Shown in pieces: positions 14,141 through 29,885 of a DNA stretch of 64,000 nt (positions are counted from its first letter, which is position 1; each line of letters begins with the position of its first letter). A program made the translations under genes and the position numbers. Location of the stretch: positions 1 through 64,000 of the IMG/VR virus record IMGVR_UViG_3300033067_001837. One strand, 5' to 3'. The notes under the pieces are model-generated. The model was given only the letters and a program-made list of their open reading frames with translations. It did no database searches and was not told the DNA's origin. Origin of the DNA: a virus. Lineage: Duplodnaviria > Caudoviricetes.

Positions 14141-14170
14141 CCCCGCCCTGAAGGACGGGGAGGATGTCAA
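14141..14170 (+). mobile_element. IS200/IS605-type end hairpin remnant
   Basis: CCCCGCCCTGAAGGACGGGGAGGATGTCAA; near-identical copies at 19865 and 22130. Confidence 0.65.
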
Positions 14171-16206: not shown

Positions 16207-16252
16207 GTCAATCACCCCGCCATAAAGGACGGGGTCTAACGCGGAGAATTTC
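16207..16252 (+). mobile_element. Collapsed ISC/IS200-605-like mini-element
   Basis: GTCAATCACCCCGCCATAAAGGACGGGGTCTAACGCGGAGAATTTC. Confidence 0.55.
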
Positions 16253-19683: not shown

Positions 19684-19875
19684 ATGTACGTCCAGCGCAA
19701 GTTGGGCTGCGGCGCATACCTGCAAGACCGATTCAAACAGGCGGCGCTTCTGATCAAGGGTGACTGCGACAACTTCTCTGACAAGGTTCAGCAACTGGTT
19801 GAACGCACCCTGCATCTGGAAAATGAAATTGAGCAGATCAGAAGCAAGAAGCATCGCTATCCCTCCCCGCCCTAA
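19684..19875 (+). CDS. Chimeric small ORF (end of insert plus original phage gene tail)
   Basis: Second TCTGAC at 19777-19782 is in frame. Confidence 0.4.
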   Translation: MYVQRKLGCGAYLQDRFKQAALLIKGDCDNFSDKVQQLVERTLHLENEIEQIRSKKHRYPSPP

Positions 19876-19894
19876 AGGACGGGGAGGATGTCAA
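19865..19894 (+). mobile_element. IS200/IS605-type end hairpin remnant
   Basis: CCCCGCCCTAAAGGACGGGGAGGATGTCAA. Confidence 0.65.
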
Positions 19895-19910
19895 TAATCA
19901 TGTGGAGTGG

Positions 19911-22007
19911 ATGATGAGAAAGCTTGCTACGATTGCTAGAATAAACCGTATTTTTCCGCACCCCAATGCAGATAATCTGGAACTGGCGCAAATTCGCGGC
20001 TGGCAGGTCTGCATCAAAAAAGGGGAGTTCCATGAGAAACCTATCGGCTGTCCATCTGGACTTTGCGTTTATGTGGAAATTGACTCGGTTCTCCCGGAAC
20101 GCCCGGAGTTTGAGTTTTTGCGGGAGCGGAAATTCCGTATTAAGACGATCCGGTTACGCGGAGAATTAAGTCAGGGTATTGCGTTTCCGCTGTCGATTCT
20201 TCCAGATGGAACTGAGTGGATTGAAGGTTTGGATGTTACCGAAGCACTCGGCATTACCCTCTATCAACCGCCGATCCCGGCGTGTTTGGGTGGTGATGTT
20301 GTAGGCACGTTCCCATCGTTTATTCCGAAAACCGACTGCGAGCGGATTCAGAATCATCAGTGGATTCTGGAAGAACTGGCGGATATGGAATGGGGAGTGA
20401 CTGAGAAGCTCGACGGCTGCTTTGAACGTAATGCCTATCTTCCATTATGGGACGGAGGAAGTATAACAATGGGTGAAATTGTCTTGCATGGTAAAAGACC
20501 AACCCTAATAGGGATGGACTCAACCGGTAAGTTAATTCCTTGCGAAATTACTGATGTTTTCAGGAACGGTAAAAAAGATAACTGGATAGATGTTTTTTAC
20601 AATCCAGTTCATAAAGCTAATCATGCCGGGAAGTCTGGAAGGATGCGGGTAACAAAAAACCACAAGATATTTTTGTCTTCTGGTAAAGAAGTCTTTGCAG
20701 GTGACTTGAAGATTTCTGATAAATTGATTTCTTACGAGGAATCACCAGACAAAAATTGCCTACATTATATCGAGTCATCCCTTCTAGGGTGTGGCAGTAT
20801 TTGTCCGAAACTTGGAAAGAACAATAAATATCAGGAAAGTCATAAGTCTGATCATGGTGAATTTTGTAATTATATAGAGCAAATACTAGGAGAGTGTTTT
20901 GCCTCACAGCGAACAGTGATTAGTGGGTATGGTACAAATATGACACAGGTTGCATCAAGAACCTATAAGGAGATGGATAGATTAAGATTGAAATGGTATC
21001 CGAATGGAAAAAAGTCACTTCCAGAAAATTTAAACTGGATTGATGATTTTTCATTTGCGAAGCTATATATGGATGATGGCTATATAGCTCATTCGGAACT
21101 TCAAAACGATAGGGCAAACATTGCAACAAATGGATTTACCAAGAGCGAAGTTGAAAGATTAGCGGCTAAACTTGAGGAAATGTATGGTGTTTTAACGAGT
21201 ATCCAAGAGTCAAGGGGGTATTGCTCAATAAGGATAAACTACCGAAAAGGAAGTATTGATAATTTCTGGAACGCTATTGCAAGACATATTCATCCAGTCT
21301 TTAAATATAAGCTTCCAGAAAAGTATCGCTCAACGGAATTCACTCCGTATATATCCTGCAAGAAGGAGAAAAATCCTGTTTATGTTGATGTTACGAGAAT
21401 AAAAGAAATTCCTCCGATAGAAGATAACTTTCCAAGCGGGCGTACTGGGTTTGATTTGGAAACAACAACGCACAATTATATATGCGGCGGGTTGTTAGTT
21501 CATAATTCCAGTTGCACCGTTTGGTGGGAAGACGACGTTCTGCATGTTTGTTCGCGTAATTGGGAGTTAAAACCCGACGACCGCAATGCATTCTGGCAGG
21601 TCGCGAATCGTGAAAATTTGGTAGATAAGCTGTGCGGAATGCCGATTGCTCTGCAAGGTGAATTGTTGGGGCCGAAAATTCAGGGTAACGCTTACAAAAT
21701 TAATAAGCCGACCCTGTTTTTCTTTGATGCTTACGATTTTAAGCAAAATCGCTATCTGGATTTTTTAGAGTTTCGCGAACTCTGTGATCACCTGGATTTA
21801 GAGGTGGTGCCGATGATCGCTTACCGCGCTCGGTTAAAGTCAATAGATACCCTGCTGGCGGAAGCGGACGCCGATAGCCAGTTGCGCAATAGTTGTCCAC
21901 GAGAGGGTCTAGTCTGGAGACCGCTGCATGAACGCTATGATTCGCGGATAGGTCGGGTTGCGTTTAAAGCCATCTCCAATCGGTTCTTGTTGAAGGTTAA
22001 AGATTGA
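19911..22007 (+). CDS. ATP-dependent RNA ligase (DRB0094/Rnl5-like) with intein
   Basis: RKLATI...HPNADNLELA...GWQV, IRLRGELSQG, PKTDCERIQN, TEKLDG/SS, LQGELLGP, REGLV, FKAISNRFL. Confidence 0.9.
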   Translation: MMRKLATIARINRIFPHPNADNLELAQIRGWQVCIKKGEFHEKPIGCPSGLCVYVEIDSVLPERPEFEFLRERKFRIKTIRLRGELSQGIAFPLSILPDGTEWIEGLDVTEALGITLYQPPIPACLGGDVVGTFPSFIPKTDCERIQNHQWILEELADMEWGVTEKLDGCFERNAYLPLWDGGSITMGEIVLHGKRPTLIGMDSTGKLIPCEITDVFRNGKKDNWIDVFYNPVHKANHAGKSGRMRVTKNHKIFLSSGKEVFAGDLKISDKLISYEESPDKNCLHYIESSLLGCGSICPKLGKNNKYQESHKSDHGEFCNYIEQILGECFASQRTVISGYGTNMTQVASRTYKEMDRLRLKWYPNGKKSLPENLNWIDDFSFAKLYMDDGYIAHSELQNDRANIATNGFTKSEVERLAAKLEEMYGVLTSIQESRGYCSIRINYRKGSIDNFWNAIARHIHPVFKYKLPEKYRSTEFTPYISCKKEKNPVYVDVTRIKEIPPIEDNFPSGRTGFDLETTTHNYICGGLLVHNSSCTVWWEDDVLHVCSRNWELKPDDRNAFWQVANRENLVDKLCGMPIALQGELLGPKIQGNAYKINKPTLFFFDAYDFKQNRYLDFLEFRELCDHLDLEVVPMIAYRARLKSIDTLLAEADADSQLRNSCPREGLVWRPLHERYDSRIGRVAFKAISNRFLLKVKD
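20418..21506 (+). mobile_element. Intein (363 aa, LAGLIDADG) in ligase motif I
   Basis: CFERNA..., VTKNHKI, LYMDDG, GFDLETTTHNY...LVHN/S. Confidence 0.9.
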
Positions 22008-22129
22008 TTTTTTACTGTCATTCTACCAATGACCTTGGTAGAATGGTGGGGTTTAATGGGTTATTACAACAGATTGCGATGTTTTTCAAACAAAACAAAC
22101 TCATGACCCTACTTTTTGAGTGCCGCAAG

Positions 22130-22159
22130 CCCCGTCCTTGAGGGCGGGGAGGATGTCAA
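22130..22159 (+). mobile_element. IS200/IS605-type end hairpin remnant
   Basis: CCCCGTCCTTGAGGGCGGGGAGGATGTCAA. Confidence 0.65.
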
Positions 22160-22206
22160 AAATTGGTCACTGCGTTTAAAATCCCTGAACAAAATGGGAG
22201 AATCTG

Positions 22207-22446
22207 ATGAATCTTTACCTACTCACTCAAACCGAGAATCATAGCTACAATACTTACGATTCTTGCGTGGTGGCGGCGAAGAATGGAGAGTCCGCTCGGC
22301 GGATTCGTCCCGACTGCAACAGTTGGGAAAAAGCCGACCATTATTCCGCTTGGGCGTTTAGTCCTGAACAAGTCAAGATCGAACTGTTAGGAACCTCGAA
22401 TAGTTGTGTAGAGAAACTCATCTTGGCTTCATTTAATGCCGGGTAG
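22207..22446 (+). CDS. Hypothetical phage protein
   Basis: GGGAG RBS; YDSCVVAA motif. Confidence 0.65.
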   Translation: MNLYLLTQTENHSYNTYDSCVVAAKNGESARRIRPDCNSWEKADHYSAWAFSPEQVKIELLGTSNSCVEKLILASFNAG

Positions 22447-22482
22447 TGATCAACCGATGATGAGGATTTAGTCGATAAATAG

Positions 22483-22511
22483 TTGCATCCTACTAACTTC
22501 ATTGATAGAAT
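22483..22511 (+). promoter_or_regulatory. Sigma70 promoter with operator
   Basis: TTGCAT-17-TAGAAT; CTACTAA-N5-TTGATAG. Confidence 0.7.
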
Positions 22512-22562
22512 GCGCAGTGCTAGTTCTTTTAAACTACTTTTTTTCTATTGTGAGGAAAAATA

Positions 22563-22946
22563 ATGAGCGATGTGCAAGACGAATTTGGCGTAGATTCCGG
22601 GCGGAAATTCGTGGCGTTGACCAGCCTTGAACGGCTGGCATCACTGCTGATGGAACTGTCTTTTCAGGAGCTTATAGATGCCGAAGCGGCCATTCATGTG
22701 CGGATTAGCGATGTCGCTGCGGAAGAAAAGGATAAGCTGATGAAGAGTGCTGCGATGGTTGCGGCGCATTTTGGCGTTAAGCCTGAAGTCCTTTTTTCGG
22801 CTCCAGCTACCAAGCGGGCTAGTAGAAAAAAGGATACCGTCGTAAAATTCACGCATCCCGATGACCCAAAGAAGACTTGGTCTGGGAAGGGCCGGAAGCC
22901 AGCTTGGGTCAGTGAACTGCCTGAGACACAGTTGGCGGCGGAGTAA
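22563..22946 (+). CDS. hns: H-NS family protein
   Basis: KFTHPDDPKKTWSGKGRKPAWV. Confidence 0.85.
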   Translation: MSDVQDEFGVDSGRKFVALTSLERLASLLMELSFQELIDAEAAIHVRISDVAAEEKDKLMKSAAMVAAHFGVKPEVLFSAPATKRASRKKDTVVKFTHPDDPKKTWSGKGRKPAWVSELPETQLAAE

Positions 22947-22955
22947 GAGGTTTGA

Positions 22956-23043
22956 GGACGGGCTGCAATGACGGCGAATTGCATTCGGCTGTAAACCGAA
23001 GGCCCACCGGGCTAAGTAGGTTCAAATCCTACCTCGTCCACCA
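22956..23043 (+). tRNA. tRNA-Tyr(GUA)
   Basis: Acceptor GGACGGG/CTCGTCC-A-CCA; anticodon arm TTCGG-CTGTAAA-CCGAA; long variable arm; GTAGG-TTCAAAT-CCTAC. Confidence 0.9.
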
Positions 23044-23053
23044 CAGAACAGGC

Positions 23054-23300
23054 GTTGAGTCCCCGCCTTGTGAGTTTGTGACTGTCATCCTTGACAGCCC
23101 CAAATTCGCAAAGACTCAACCAGCCGACTTTAACGAGTAAACGACATTGAATGAAGCGAAAGCGAGATACCTTGGGGTGCTTCATCAGCTCCAAGCTCTA
23201 TCGTCAAAAGCGATGCTGCCCGATGCGGTTGATGGGCGAACGCTGCGACTGAACGACTTCAATGATCTCGGCGAGATGACCTTTACCGTTGATCGAGAGG
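23054..23300 (+). ncRNA. omegaRNA (HEARO-like) scaffold of IscB
   Basis: GTTGAGTC/GACTCAAC-CAGCC stem; ACCTTGGGGTGCTTCATCAGCTCCAAGCTCT; GGCGAGATGA pairing partner; directly 5' of iscB. Confidence 0.8.
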
Positions 23301-23310
23301 GTTTACACCC

Positions 23311-24621
23311 ATGAATTCTGTGTTTGTACTGAGTAGTACCCAAAATCCGTTAATGCCGACCCGTCCGGCGCGGGCGCGAAAACTCTTAACAGCGGGTCGT
23401 GCGGCAGTTTACCGTCTACACCCTTTCACGATCATTCTGAAAGATCGGGCTGATGGTGAAACACAGGATGTCGAGGTGAAAGTTGATCCAGGTAGCAAGA
23501 CGACCGGGATTGCGCTGGTAGGCCACTTTGAACAACAGGGCGCGGTGGTGCTGTGGGGTGCAAACCTGAATCATCGCGGCCAAGCCATAAAGAATAACTT
23601 GGAGTCCCGGAGTTCGCTACGTCGGAGTCGCCGGGGCCGAAAAACTCGTTATCGGAAATCCAGGTTTTTGAATAGAACTCGCAAAGCAGGTCGGCTACCG
23701 CCATCCGTGGAAAGCCGAGTAGGCAATACCGAGTCTGTAATTTACCGATTAGCTTCACGCTGTCCAATTACTGAGGCCAGCGTGGAGATCGTCAAATTCG
23801 ACATGCAAGCGATGGTCAACCCGGAAATCAGTGGAACTGAGTACCAACAGGGTGAGTTAGCCGGATACGAGGTCAGGGAGTATCTCCTGGAGAAATGGCA
23901 CCGCGCCTGCGCTTATTGCGGCGCGAAAGAGGTTCCGCTCCAAGTTGAGCATATTTATCCCAAGGCGCTTGGTGGTAGCAACCGGGTTTCCAATCTGACT
24001 TTGGCGTGTCAACCCTGTAACCAGAAAAAAGGTAGTCGCCTAATTGATGAGTTTATTAAAGACCAACCGGAACTACTTAAACTAATTAAGTCACAAGCAA
24101 AGACACCTTTAAAAGATGCCGCCGCTGTTAATGCTTCTCGATGGGCGCTAGTGAATCGACTTAAGCAGTGGCTACCTGTCGCCACAGGAAGTGGCGGACG
24201 CACCAAGTTCAATCGTACCCGACAAGGTTACAACAAAGATCACTGGATTGACGCCGCTTGTGTTGGCGAAAGTGGCGAACAGGTCACGATTCGGAAGGGG
24301 ATGAAACCCTTGGTTATTACAGCGAAAGGTCGCGGTACGCATCAGGTGGTTCGCACGGACAAGTACGGCTTTCCGCGTGGAAAAGCGGGGCGTATTAAGC
24401 GGGCATTCGGTTTCTCAACCGGCGACATCGTGAATCTTAATCAGCCAAAAGGAAAATATGCGGGAACGTATATTGCTCGACTGACAAGTATTCGAATAAA
24501 AGGTCAGTTCGATATTAAATGGTCGGATGCAAGAATATCCGCAAACCACAAACACTTCACACTCATTCAACGCAACGACGGGTTTGACTATGCAACAACT
24601 GAACGAAAAAACACAACGTAA
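23311..24621 (+). CDS. iscB: IscB RNA-guided endonuclease
   Basis: PLMP, RuvC-I VDPGSKTTG, Arg-rich bridge helix, RuvC-II VEIVKFD, HNH CAYC...EHIYP...N...CQPCN, RuvC-III HWIDA. Confidence 0.95.
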   Translation: MNSVFVLSSTQNPLMPTRPARARKLLTAGRAAVYRLHPFTIILKDRADGETQDVEVKVDPGSKTTGIALVGHFEQQGAVVLWGANLNHRGQAIKNNLESRSSLRRSRRGRKTRYRKSRFLNRTRKAGRLPPSVESRVGNTESVIYRLASRCPITEASVEIVKFDMQAMVNPEISGTEYQQGELAGYEVREYLLEKWHRACAYCGAKEVPLQVEHIYPKALGGSNRVSNLTLACQPCNQKKGSRLIDEFIKDQPELLKLIKSQAKTPLKDAAAVNASRWALVNRLKQWLPVATGSGGRTKFNRTRQGYNKDHWIDAACVGESGEQVTIRKGMKPLVITAKGRGTHQVVRTDKYGFPRGKAGRIKRAFGFSTGDIVNLNQPKGKYAGTYIARLTSIRIKGQFDIKWSDARISANHKHFTLIQRNDGFDYATTERKNTT

Positions 24622-24634
24622 CAAGGGGTAATGT

Positions 24635-25750
24635 TTGAAAATCAAAACCGCTAGAAACAACCTACTCAATCCCATAGCTGCCGTTATTGGTGCCATTCAG
24701 CAGAAACAAACCCTCCCAACTTTAACCGGAGTGCTCATTCAAGCGCGCAGCGACGGCACCGTCTTTACCGGGACAGACCTAGAAATTCAACTCACCGCAA
24801 AGACCGACCTCATTCCCGAAGCGGAAGGTGGCTGGTCCATCCCGGCGAAACGTCTTCATGATATTTTGCGAGTGCTCCCGGATGACGCTGATGTCACGCT
24901 CGCTGTTGAAAAGGACGGTAAAACTACGCTACGGAGTGGGCGGAGTCGGTTCGTGTTGAAGGCCTTGCCCGAATGTGATTATCCTAACCTTCTCGACATT
25001 CCGTATGGTGGGACGATTTCGATTGCGCAAGGTAATTTGAAGAAGGCCATTACTGCAACTGCGTATGCAATGGCCGTGCAGGACGCGCGTTATTATCTGA
25101 ATGGACTCTCACTGGAGTGCTCATCGACTAAGCTCACCGTCTGCGCGACGGATGGGCATCGATTAGCTGTCACTTCCATCAAAAACGCCGAGATTCAGGT
25201 CGATGAAGACCAGTCCATGATTTTGCCGAACAAGAGCATCGGGGCGTTAATGAAGTTGCTGGACGAAGACAGCGAGGAACAGGTGACAGTCCTACTGGGC
25301 AAGAACCACGTTCGGGTCAATAGCGGATCGCTGTTTCTGGTGGCTAAGCTCATTAATGGCGAGTTCCCGAACTACAAGCGGGTTATTCCTCGTGAACCAC
25401 CGAGTAACGTCCTGGTATCGCGAGAGGAACTGTTGGGGTTATTGCGGCGCGTTTCCTTGCTGTTGAACGCAAAATCGAATAACGGATTGGAGATTACGTT
25501 CAACTCCGGATCGCTGAGTGCGCGAGCTACGAATACGGATAACGAAGAGGCTAATGATGAAATCTCTGTTGAGTACAACAATGGTCTGTTTGTCTCCGGT
25601 TACAACTACCGTTATCTTCAAGACGCGGTTCAGGCTATTGATGGGAAATCGTTAAAGTGGTCTTTCTCCGGTCCGTTGAACTCCATTCTGATTGAAGACG
25701 CCGATACGCCTGACGCCGGTTTGCATGTTATCATGCCAATGCGGCTATAG
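24635..25750 (+). CDS. dnaN: DNA polymerase III beta sliding clamp
   Basis: GTDLEI, QDARYYLNG, ATDGHRLA, FPNYKRVIP, VIMPMRL. Confidence 0.95.
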   Translation: MKIKTARNNLLNPIAAVIGAIQQKQTLPTLTGVLIQARSDGTVFTGTDLEIQLTAKTDLIPEAEGGWSIPAKRLHDILRVLPDDADVTLAVEKDGKTTLRSGRSRFVLKALPECDYPNLLDIPYGGTISIAQGNLKKAITATAYAMAVQDARYYLNGLSLECSSTKLTVCATDGHRLAVTSIKNAEIQVDEDQSMILPNKSIGALMKLLDEDSEEQVTVLLGKNHVRVNSGSLFLVAKLINGEFPNYKRVIPREPPSNVLVSREELLGLLRRVSLLLNAKSNNGLEITFNSGSLSARATNTDNEEANDEISVEYNNGLFVSGYNYRYLQDAVQAIDGKSLKWSFSGPLNSILIEDADTPDAGLHVIMPMRL

Positions 25751-29633: not shown

Positions 29634-29885
29634 ATGGTTGCGCTAGGCTACGTCTGTTCCATGTGGAACACGGGATTAGCCTCCCGGAACCTCAAGCGCG
29701 AAAGCGCCATCAGCGATACCGGCGTATTTTTTACGCCTGCTATTTCTATGGCGGGATTGCGGGATGGACTCGTAAGAGTCGCCGGGTTCCTTGAGGCCGG
29801 TAAGGCTAACTTCCCGCAGTACCGCCACCATCTCTGGTTAGCCTCAGCAGTGGCGGTATCCAATCCTCAAGGAGTACCGTTATGA
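29634..29885 (+). CDS. Ash-family-like ORF overlapping C4 RNA
   Basis: GVFF...MAG...AGKAN pattern; may be only the translation of the RNA element. Confidence 0.4.
   Translation: MVALGYVCSMWNTGLASRNLKRESAISDTGVFFTPAISMAGLRDGLVRVAGFLEAGKANFPQYRHHLWLASAVAVSNPQGVPL
29749..29830 (+). ncRNA. C4 antisense RNA (P1/P7-type)
   Basis: TGGCGG...CCGCCA-CCA ends; GACTC-GTAA-GAGTC hairpin; AGGCTAA pairs with TTAGCCT up- and downstream; promoter TTGACA-17-TAGGCT at 29621-29649. Confidence 0.75.

Follow-up and report, generated by a model that had tools for sequence, protein, structure and literature searches.

The iscB locus

An iscB gene preceded by its omegaRNA was identified in the virus record IMGVR_UViG_3300033067_001837 of IMG/VR, a phage genome of 110,582 bp that is rated complete by CheckV. 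The window analysed here is the first 64 kb of this record, and positions refer to it unless the contig of a relative is named. The genes and features around iscB, all on the + strand, are an intein-bearing RNA ligase gene, a small open reading frame (ORF), an H-NS-like gene, a tRNA-Tyr gene, the omegaRNA, iscB and dnaN, followed by ProQ, Y-RNA-like genes and Ro60 (Table 1). The element formed by the omegaRNA and iscB is single-copy in the phage genome. It has lost the end distal to the ORF, and its nuclease gene has stayed open and conserved. A preliminary description of this DNA placed the scaffold 10 nt behind the tRNA CCA. This spacing was recovered independently, as ARAGORN and Rfam end the tRNA at 23043, and both the match to the omegaRNA model and the homology to relatives start at 23054.

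Table 1. Features of the iscB locus (TAM, target-adjacent motif)
Feature	Position	Strand	Remarks
H-NS-like gene	22563-22946	+	Pfam Histone_HNS, 1.3e-8; upstream of the tRNA, same orientation
tRNA-Tyr (anticodon GTA)	22956-23043	+	ARAGORN; Rfam tRNA, 39.7 bits; class II with long variable arm; CCA encoded; outside the mobile element
Predicted 16-nt guide	23038-23053	+	Last 6 nt of the tRNA (C71, C72, A73, CCA) and the 10-nt trailer; length by analogy with OgeuIscB
10-nt trailer	23044-23053	+	Between tRNA CCA and scaffold start
omegaRNA scaffold and omegaRNA-proximal element end	23054-23310	+	HEARO match at 23054-23286; subfamily hairpin at 23079-23098
iscB (436 aa)	23311-24621	+	PLMP, RuvC, bridge helix, HNH, RuvC-III and TAM-interacting regions intact
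Breakpoint	24610-24611	+	End of homology to the element; the ~140-bp distal end of the relatives is missing
Junction (24 nt)	24611-24634	+	New iscB stop at 24619-24621; dnaN Shine-Dalgarno at 24623-24628
dnaN (sliding clamp)	24635-25750	+	TTG start; three Pfam DNA_pol3_beta domains

Relatives and limits of the complete element

Relatives of the window IscB were found by scans of two collections. A protein-seeded scan of IMG/VR gave six loci (L004-L009; 76-82% identity), of which L004 and L005 are identical in DNA. Four more (L015-L018; 75-82%) came from a scan of species genomes and are located in metagenome-assembled genomes (MAGs) of Candidatus Competibacteraceae and other Pseudomonadota. 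Nine relatives and the window copy form one clade with a support of 100/100.

Five distinct relatives (L004, L006, L007, L015 and L016) share DNA homology with the window that starts at base 23054; over all copies with a mappable proximal end it starts there in six, and the left flank beyond the scaffold start is different in all seven copies compared. Because the homology begins at this base and the flanks differ from copy to copy, the guide is flank DNA of a mobile element. This arrangement is known for IscB, the scaffold of which comes from the transposon end, whereas the guide is encoded outside the boundary and transcription must enter externally; the orientation of iscB is biased toward that of the upstream gene (Meers et al., 10.1101/2023.03.14.532601).

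The other limit of the element is given by the six relatives with a complete ORF-distal flank, which carry an extra ~140-150 bp behind the iscB stop; this segment is closed by a short hairpin with a conserved terminus (the contig of L006 stops before this terminus). The full element is ~1.7 kb long (1,703 bp in L004). One MAG contains 13 matches to the element, including eight additional copies, solo or fragmentary, of its last ~50 bp; judged from these copies, this segment is a genuine repeated transposon end. The four bases behind the distal terminus are NNGG in 13 of 15 independent copies. From these flanks of the relatives, NNGG is predicted to be both the insertion motif and the target-adjacent (TAM-like) motif of the subfamily, and in its general type it resembles the NNRR motif of OgeuIscB. 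Copies with identical termini occur at unrelated sites, as seen in seven left flanks, 15 distal termini and the 13 matches in the one MAG. The relatives thus show the element to be of the IS200/IS605 type of IscB elements. It is non-autonomous, and its subfamily has its home in Competibacteraceae-like Gammaproteobacteria.

All full relatives also contain an 11-nt word near the omegaRNA 5' end that is the exact reverse complement of a word right behind the iscB stop. The two words lie at L004:3071-3081 and L004:4631-4641 and at the same places in L006, L007 and L015-L018, and both are invariant. In the window, the proximal word (23059-23069) has two changes and its distal partner is lost. The pair could serve synapsis of the ends or pairing between the 5' and 3' parts of the RNA.

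Loss of the ORF-distal end

The BLASTN homology between the window and its relatives stops at 24610/24611 in four of five comparisons, and earlier in the more divergent copies. The stop codon of the relatives is altered in the window, and the ORF extends by seven codons across the breakpoint to a stop located before the dnaN ribosome-binding site, which leaves a gap of 13 nt between the iscB stop and the TTG start of dnaN. A tolerant pattern search found no trace of the distal element segment from 24611 onwards or anywhere else in the 110,582-bp genome. The source assembly spans the junction in one contig with even depth. The earlier observation that no right-end hairpin follows iscB and that dnaN begins 13 nt later was correct, and nothing resembling the distal end of the relatives occurs in the whole genome.

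Of the two ends with subterminal hairpins that characterise mobile IS200/IS605 elements, the proximal one is complete from 23054 and the distal one is missing. Because the distal ~140 bp with the terminal hairpin and the cleavage-side terminus are lost, excision by TnpA (peel-and-paste) is no longer possible. A search of the 110,582-bp record for a Y1 TnpA (PF01797) was negative, with positive controls; the host may encode a TnpA. The proposal in the preliminary description that the nuclease is immobilised is upheld by the missing ~140 bp, which is kept in the six relatives with a complete distal flank. Its characterisation of the copy as devoid of transposon-end hairpins applies to the ORF-distal end and not to the proximal end, which is complete with the subfamily hairpin at 23079-23098. 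Mobile copies with the same ends at unrelated sites, which the same description had named as evidence that would speak against it, were found in part: the left end is shared with copies at unrelated sites, which shows the family to be mobile, but these copies have a right end that is lacking in the window copy.

Two other viral contigs, L008 and L009, also carry IscB copies without the distal end (L008:3700-3770 and L008:5290-5340; L009:1180-1290), and terminator-like hairpins follow both IscBs. These losses are independent, since each copy groups with an end-bearing copy in the tree. Repeated loss of the end fits a TnpA-free life in phages, in a small sample in which the viral status of the short contigs is uncertain. 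Three short direct repeats are located just upstream of the divergent scaffold of L008.

Conservation of the nuclease and the omegaRNA

The Pfam domains RRXRR (9e-68) and HNH were detected in the window IscB, and PDB chains of solved IscB structures match it with E values of 1e-21 to 2.5e-40. In an alignment with eight IscBs, the RuvC residues D59, E159, H311 and D314, the HNH residues H214, N228 and N237, and the four zinc cysteines are invariant, so that the catalytic residues are intact, as the preliminary description had judged from the single sequence. The arginine-rich bridge helix is present, and the C-terminal TAM-interacting block is conserved.

The ratio of nonsynonymous to synonymous substitution (dN/dS) between the window gene and its relatives is 0.04-0.07, with dS saturated. 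The dN values of the same comparisons are 0.13-0.15, which is not above the 0.12-0.16 found among mobile copies. The G+C content at third codon positions (GC3) of the window iscB is 0.48, close to the overall G+C content of the phage (0.477), whereas the GC3 of the relatives is 0.54-0.84 and follows that of their own flanks. Because GC3 has moved to the phage composition, the gene appears to have resided for a long time in the AT-richer phage with its ORF open and conserved. By these measures the window copy is not decaying, and the purifying selection estimated for it is strong.

The omegaRNA was identified with the Rfam family HEARO (RF02033; IscB omegaRNA), positions 1-211 of which align full length to 23054-23286 with 56.8 bits (E = 8e-11 for the local search and 7.5e-9 for the whole window), a score below the gathering score of 83 bits. 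The canonical first hairpin of the model is unmatched in the window scaffold. Scores of 40-61 bits were obtained for the close relatives, as compared to 106-145 bits in more distant canonical IscB loci. The first-stem type and the inner hairpin of the window are common to six close relatives, while the seventh, L008, is divergent in this part. A hairpin motif similar to that at 23079-23098 closes the distal end of most relatives, and a further small hairpin within the scaffold region covers the iscB ribosome-binding site. RNAalifold predicted 71 pairs from seven omegaRNAs; 38 of the 71 show compensatory changes, and all pairs are maintained in the window. Taken with the protein alignment, these comparisons support an intact nuclease and an intact omegaRNA.

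The preliminary description had also noted that the first hairpin lacks the CCCC...GGGG type present elsewhere in the window. This holds, and it is a trait of the whole 10-member subfamily, mobile-looking copies included. The CCCC...GGGG type occurs at 14141, 16215, 19865, 22130 and 76797, that is, within the segments 14141-14170, 16207-16252, 19855-19894 and 22130-22159 of the window and 76797-76816 of the genome. These five hairpins resemble the end hairpins of another, canonical IscB subfamily (L012/L013), and the distal end of L013 shows a 93% match to the 30 nt at 19855-19884. The copy at 16207-16252 has a proximal-type 5' flank joined to a distal-type 3' tail, and the same 10-nt tail, overlapping -35-like hexamers, stands behind three of the hairpins. 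They could be solo insertion sequence ends, terminator-promoter modules, or both. The possibility that they are the lost ends of the window element was rejected, as their likeness is to the ends of the canonical L012/L013 subfamily.

The tRNA gene, transcription and the predicted guide

The homology to the relatives begins behind the tRNA, which is thus flank and not part of the element. No tRNA was found upstream within the fetched flanks of ~35 related IscB loci. An upstream tRNA as a general trait of phage IscBs was also rejected, since four isolate or uncultured phage loci from GenBank either have no tRNA or have their nearest one on the opposite strand at a distance of ~900 nt. The tRNA neighbour is most likely the mere landing place of this copy. 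The spacer between the tRNA and dnaN is an unsurprising site because a compact phage has few non-coding sites and insertions are retained preferentially behind same-sense transcription.

A promoter-like site is located at 22153-22182, upstream of the H-NS-like gene, and no + strand terminator was predicted in 21900-24800, that is, from this site through iscB. For this reason, the omegaRNA is likely to arise by read-through from the H-NS/tRNA transcript, and the H-NS-like gene is probably part of the transcript that enters the tRNA and the omegaRNA.

Four sequencing runs were examined, all of them as contigs. A contig of run X2, a sediment metatranscriptome, starts exactly at base 1 of the tRNA and follows the window from 22956 to 23054, through the trailer; past 23054 it continues with a T-arm-like sequence that is absent from the phage. 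This contig may represent an empty allele, another organism or a chimera. A contig of run X3, from the source study, contains a different tRNA-Tyr, the 3' part of which matches the phage tRNA (window 23008-23044) and which diverges right after the CCA. This tRNA-Tyr may belong to the host and be a clue to its identity. Stretches that runs X2-X4 leave uncovered carry no evidential weight.

Between the acceptor stem and the opening stem of the scaffold, only the 14 nt at 23040-23053 are unpaired. In OgeuIscB, mismatches at guide positions 1-14 abolish cleavage, whereas positions 15-16 are dispensable (PMC9640706). By analogy with this requirement for ~14 bp, a guide cut back to the CCA, and hence 10 nt long at most, would be too short, and a working guide would need at least A73 and the CCA. 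The agreement between the 14-nt unpaired stretch and the 14-bp requirement is a numerical coincidence. In four genomes of the home lineage that carry the element, the guide has no match with fewer than two mismatches, and only two-mismatch matches were found. Host tRNA-Tyr genes are not expected as targets because the trailer, which makes up the seed half of the guide, is specific to the phage. Host tRNA or att loci, suggested as targets in the preliminary description, are for these reasons unlikely.

When isolate phages were searched by blastn with the region and with the tRNA, the result was nothing or only a distant tRNA-Tyr of Aeromonas phages. An ancestral spacer in which the trailer was joined to the Shine-Dalgarno sequence of dnaN and AAGG served as the motif was considered and set aside; its position 5 misfits the relatives, and the reconstruction is a guess.

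Persistence of the truncated element

The explanation that accounts best for the locus, and in which moderate confidence is placed, is that an end-truncated IscB element persists as a homing or competitor-cutting nuclease and that the tRNA is incidental. In this account, the element was inserted into the short spacer between the phage tRNA-Tyr gene and dnaN, in sense to the operon, and later lost its ORF-distal ~140 bp, which ended excision by TnpA. Without a promoter of its own, the omegaRNA would be made by read-through from the H-NS/tRNA transcript, and its guide would be whatever sits 5' of 23054, namely the 10-nt trailer and the ACCA or CCACCA end of the tRNA. The sole natural target would be the same tRNA-dnaN spacer in insert-free sibling phages, followed by an NNGG-type motif, and the phage's own copy would be protected because the scaffold now stands behind the guide sequence. 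Cutting of an uninterrupted spacer could drive the copying of the cassette by repair, for which no transposon ends are needed. Most likely, the element would thus persist as a transposase-independent, RNA-guided homing or competitor-cutting nuclease. Such a role would fit a phage in which inteins and HNH genes are already abundant, and the position behind the tRNA would reflect an available, transcribed, non-coding landing site rather than a dedicated fusion of tRNA and guide. A TnpA-independent "non-restorative homing" has been discussed for TnpB/IS605 (PMC13565253).

Several observations weigh against this explanation. The RNA evidence consists of contigs of one metatranscriptome library and is no proof of transcription. 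No empty allele or orthologous phage locus was found, as protein-seeded scans (dnaN, H-NS and a dnaN alignment) of viral and metagenome contigs gave no close relative, and scans for exact matches to the 3' half of the tRNA and to its end with the trailer found none. Neither the rest of the phage genome nor the collections searched contain another match to the 16-nt guide. The sequence now to the right of the breakpoint does not begin with NNGG. Finally, if 3' maturation of the tRNA took place inside the trailer, 10 nt or less would be left, and by analogy with OgeuIscB the nuclease would have no usable guide.

The copy could instead be an inert relic, in which the truncation ended the life cycle of the element and the intact gene has not decayed yet. 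The lost distal end, the lack of TnpA in the phage, the failure to find a target and a HEARO score under the gathering score are all in keeping with a relic. However, the GC3 of the gene has moved to the phage value, 6-36 points away from that of the relatives, and during this shift the ORF remained open, with dN/dS at 0.04-0.07 and the catalytic residues kept; the pairs of the omegaRNA are maintained by compensatory changes; and the low HEARO score is common to the mobile relatives. A relic is accordingly unlikely.

A functional coupling of tRNA and guide would be the natural counterpart of the engineered arrays of tRNAs and guide RNAs. Either the omegaRNA would owe its 5' end to RNase P and 3'-end processing of the co-transcript, or a 14-nt single-stranded guide would be capped by the folded tRNA that stays attached to it. 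It is suggested by the exactly 14 unpaired nucleotides beside the TAM-proximal 14 bp needed by OgeuIscB, by the tRNA and scaffold being separated by neither a terminator nor a promoter, and by the X2 contig, which begins at tRNA base 1 and continues through the trailer. The adjacency is nevertheless not conserved among the ~35 related loci, the left boundary places the tRNA in the flank, outside the element, and a chance adjacency is not rare when phages offer few non-coding landing sites. Such coupling is regarded as distinctly unlikely. A particular form of it is still more doubtful, in which the tRNA-Tyr stays on the omegaRNA as a structured 5' cap after the RNase P cut at the tRNA 5' end, with A73, the CCA and the 10-nt trailer as a minimal guide, or in which 3' maturation of the tRNA competes with guide formation and so tunes the nuclease. 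If the junction were functional, then together with the independent loss of the end in three viral copies it would mean that phage IscBs are turning into transposase-free, tRNA-linked, RNA-guided homing nucleases.

Domestication for the benefit of the phage, with a target outside it (a host locus, a rival element or a regulatory site) and comparable to the TldR-type exaptation of TnpB, is very unlikely; the copy is immobilised yet conserved, it lies in an early/replication operon beside dnaN, H-NS and ProQ, and two other viral copies have lost the distal end in independent events, but the nuclease residues are intact, unlike those of the nuclease-dead TldR, the guide equals the local flank as after any fresh insertion, the four home-lineage genomes hold no match below two mismatches, and neither the nuclease loss and conserved guide with a host target that mark TldR-like proteins nor orthologous loci were found.

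The preferred explanation, a truncated element that persists as a homing or competitor-cutting nuclease, leaves the picture of the family unchanged, as the kind of element is known and the link to the tRNA is probably incidental. The locus is a clean natural case of an IscB/omegaRNA pair that lacks the transposase-dependent end and, as estimated from dN/dS, is still under strong purifying selection in a phage. Purifying selection after the loss of the end is what a transposase-independent role of these Cas9 ancestors in homing or phage competition predicts. The mapped termini also provide a testable NNGG target motif and a compact nuclease of 436 aa with a defined scaffold.

Neighbouring genes

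The closest homologue of the phage DnaN (P0002) is 78% identical and has the same N-terminus; it offers the best lead to an insert-free site. The RNA ligase gene (19902-22007) is split by an intein that carries a LAGLIDADG endonuclease. The region near iscB is rich in RNA-repair and RNA-chaperone functions, including the RNA ligase, the Ro60 and Y-RNA genes and ProQ. Antisense RNAs of the C4/c4-2 type, known from P1/P7 immunity, were detected in the window (29744-29832) and in the contigs of two unrelated relatives (L005:4485-4574 and L008:2036-2102), in each case 2-5 kb from the IscB gene.

Comparison with known systems

The locus shares with the IscB-omegaRNA systems of IS200/IS605 (OgeuIscB, PDB 7UTN/7XHT; GstIscB; HEARO, RF02033) the order of domains, the catalytic residues, the arginine-rich bridge helix, the upstream sense omegaRNA with a HEARO-like fold and the guide taken from the outside flank. 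Reliance on outside transcription is also common to both, and there is no TnpA nearby, as with most IscBs. The window copy differs in having no ORF-distal end, in belonging to a subfamily that replaces the canonical first hairpin and reaches only 40-61 bits with HEARO, and in a guide flank that is the 3' end of a tRNA with its trailer.

Within the ~1.7-kb subfamily itself (L004, L006, L007 and L015-L018, from Competibacteraceae/Pseudomonadota MAGs and IMG/VR contigs), the amino acid identity to the window IscB is 75-82%, and the proximal terminus and the omegaRNA structure are the same. In contrast to the window copy, these copies, except L006 at its contig end, keep the ~140-150-bp distal end with the terminal hairpin and the NNGG flank; they also have GC3 values of 0.54-0.84 and no tRNA neighbour.

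SegB of phage T4 (PMC2330249, as cited in PMC13565253) is a free-standing homing endonuclease of a phage tRNA region. The window iscB resembles it as a nuclease gene placed between conserved phage genes beside tRNA genes, and in the expectation that the allele without the nuclease gene is cut and then receives a copy by repair. Target recognition by SegB is protein-based, whereas the window IscB would recognise its target by a guide RNA and its homing is a prediction.

The TnpB-derived repressors known as TldR (10.1101/2023.11.30.569447) are, like the window IscB, RNA-guided nucleases of transposon origin that lost mobility and were retained. In TldR proteins the nuclease is dead and the conserved guides are directed at host promoters, whereas the window IscB has kept its catalytic residues and its predicted guide is plain flank.

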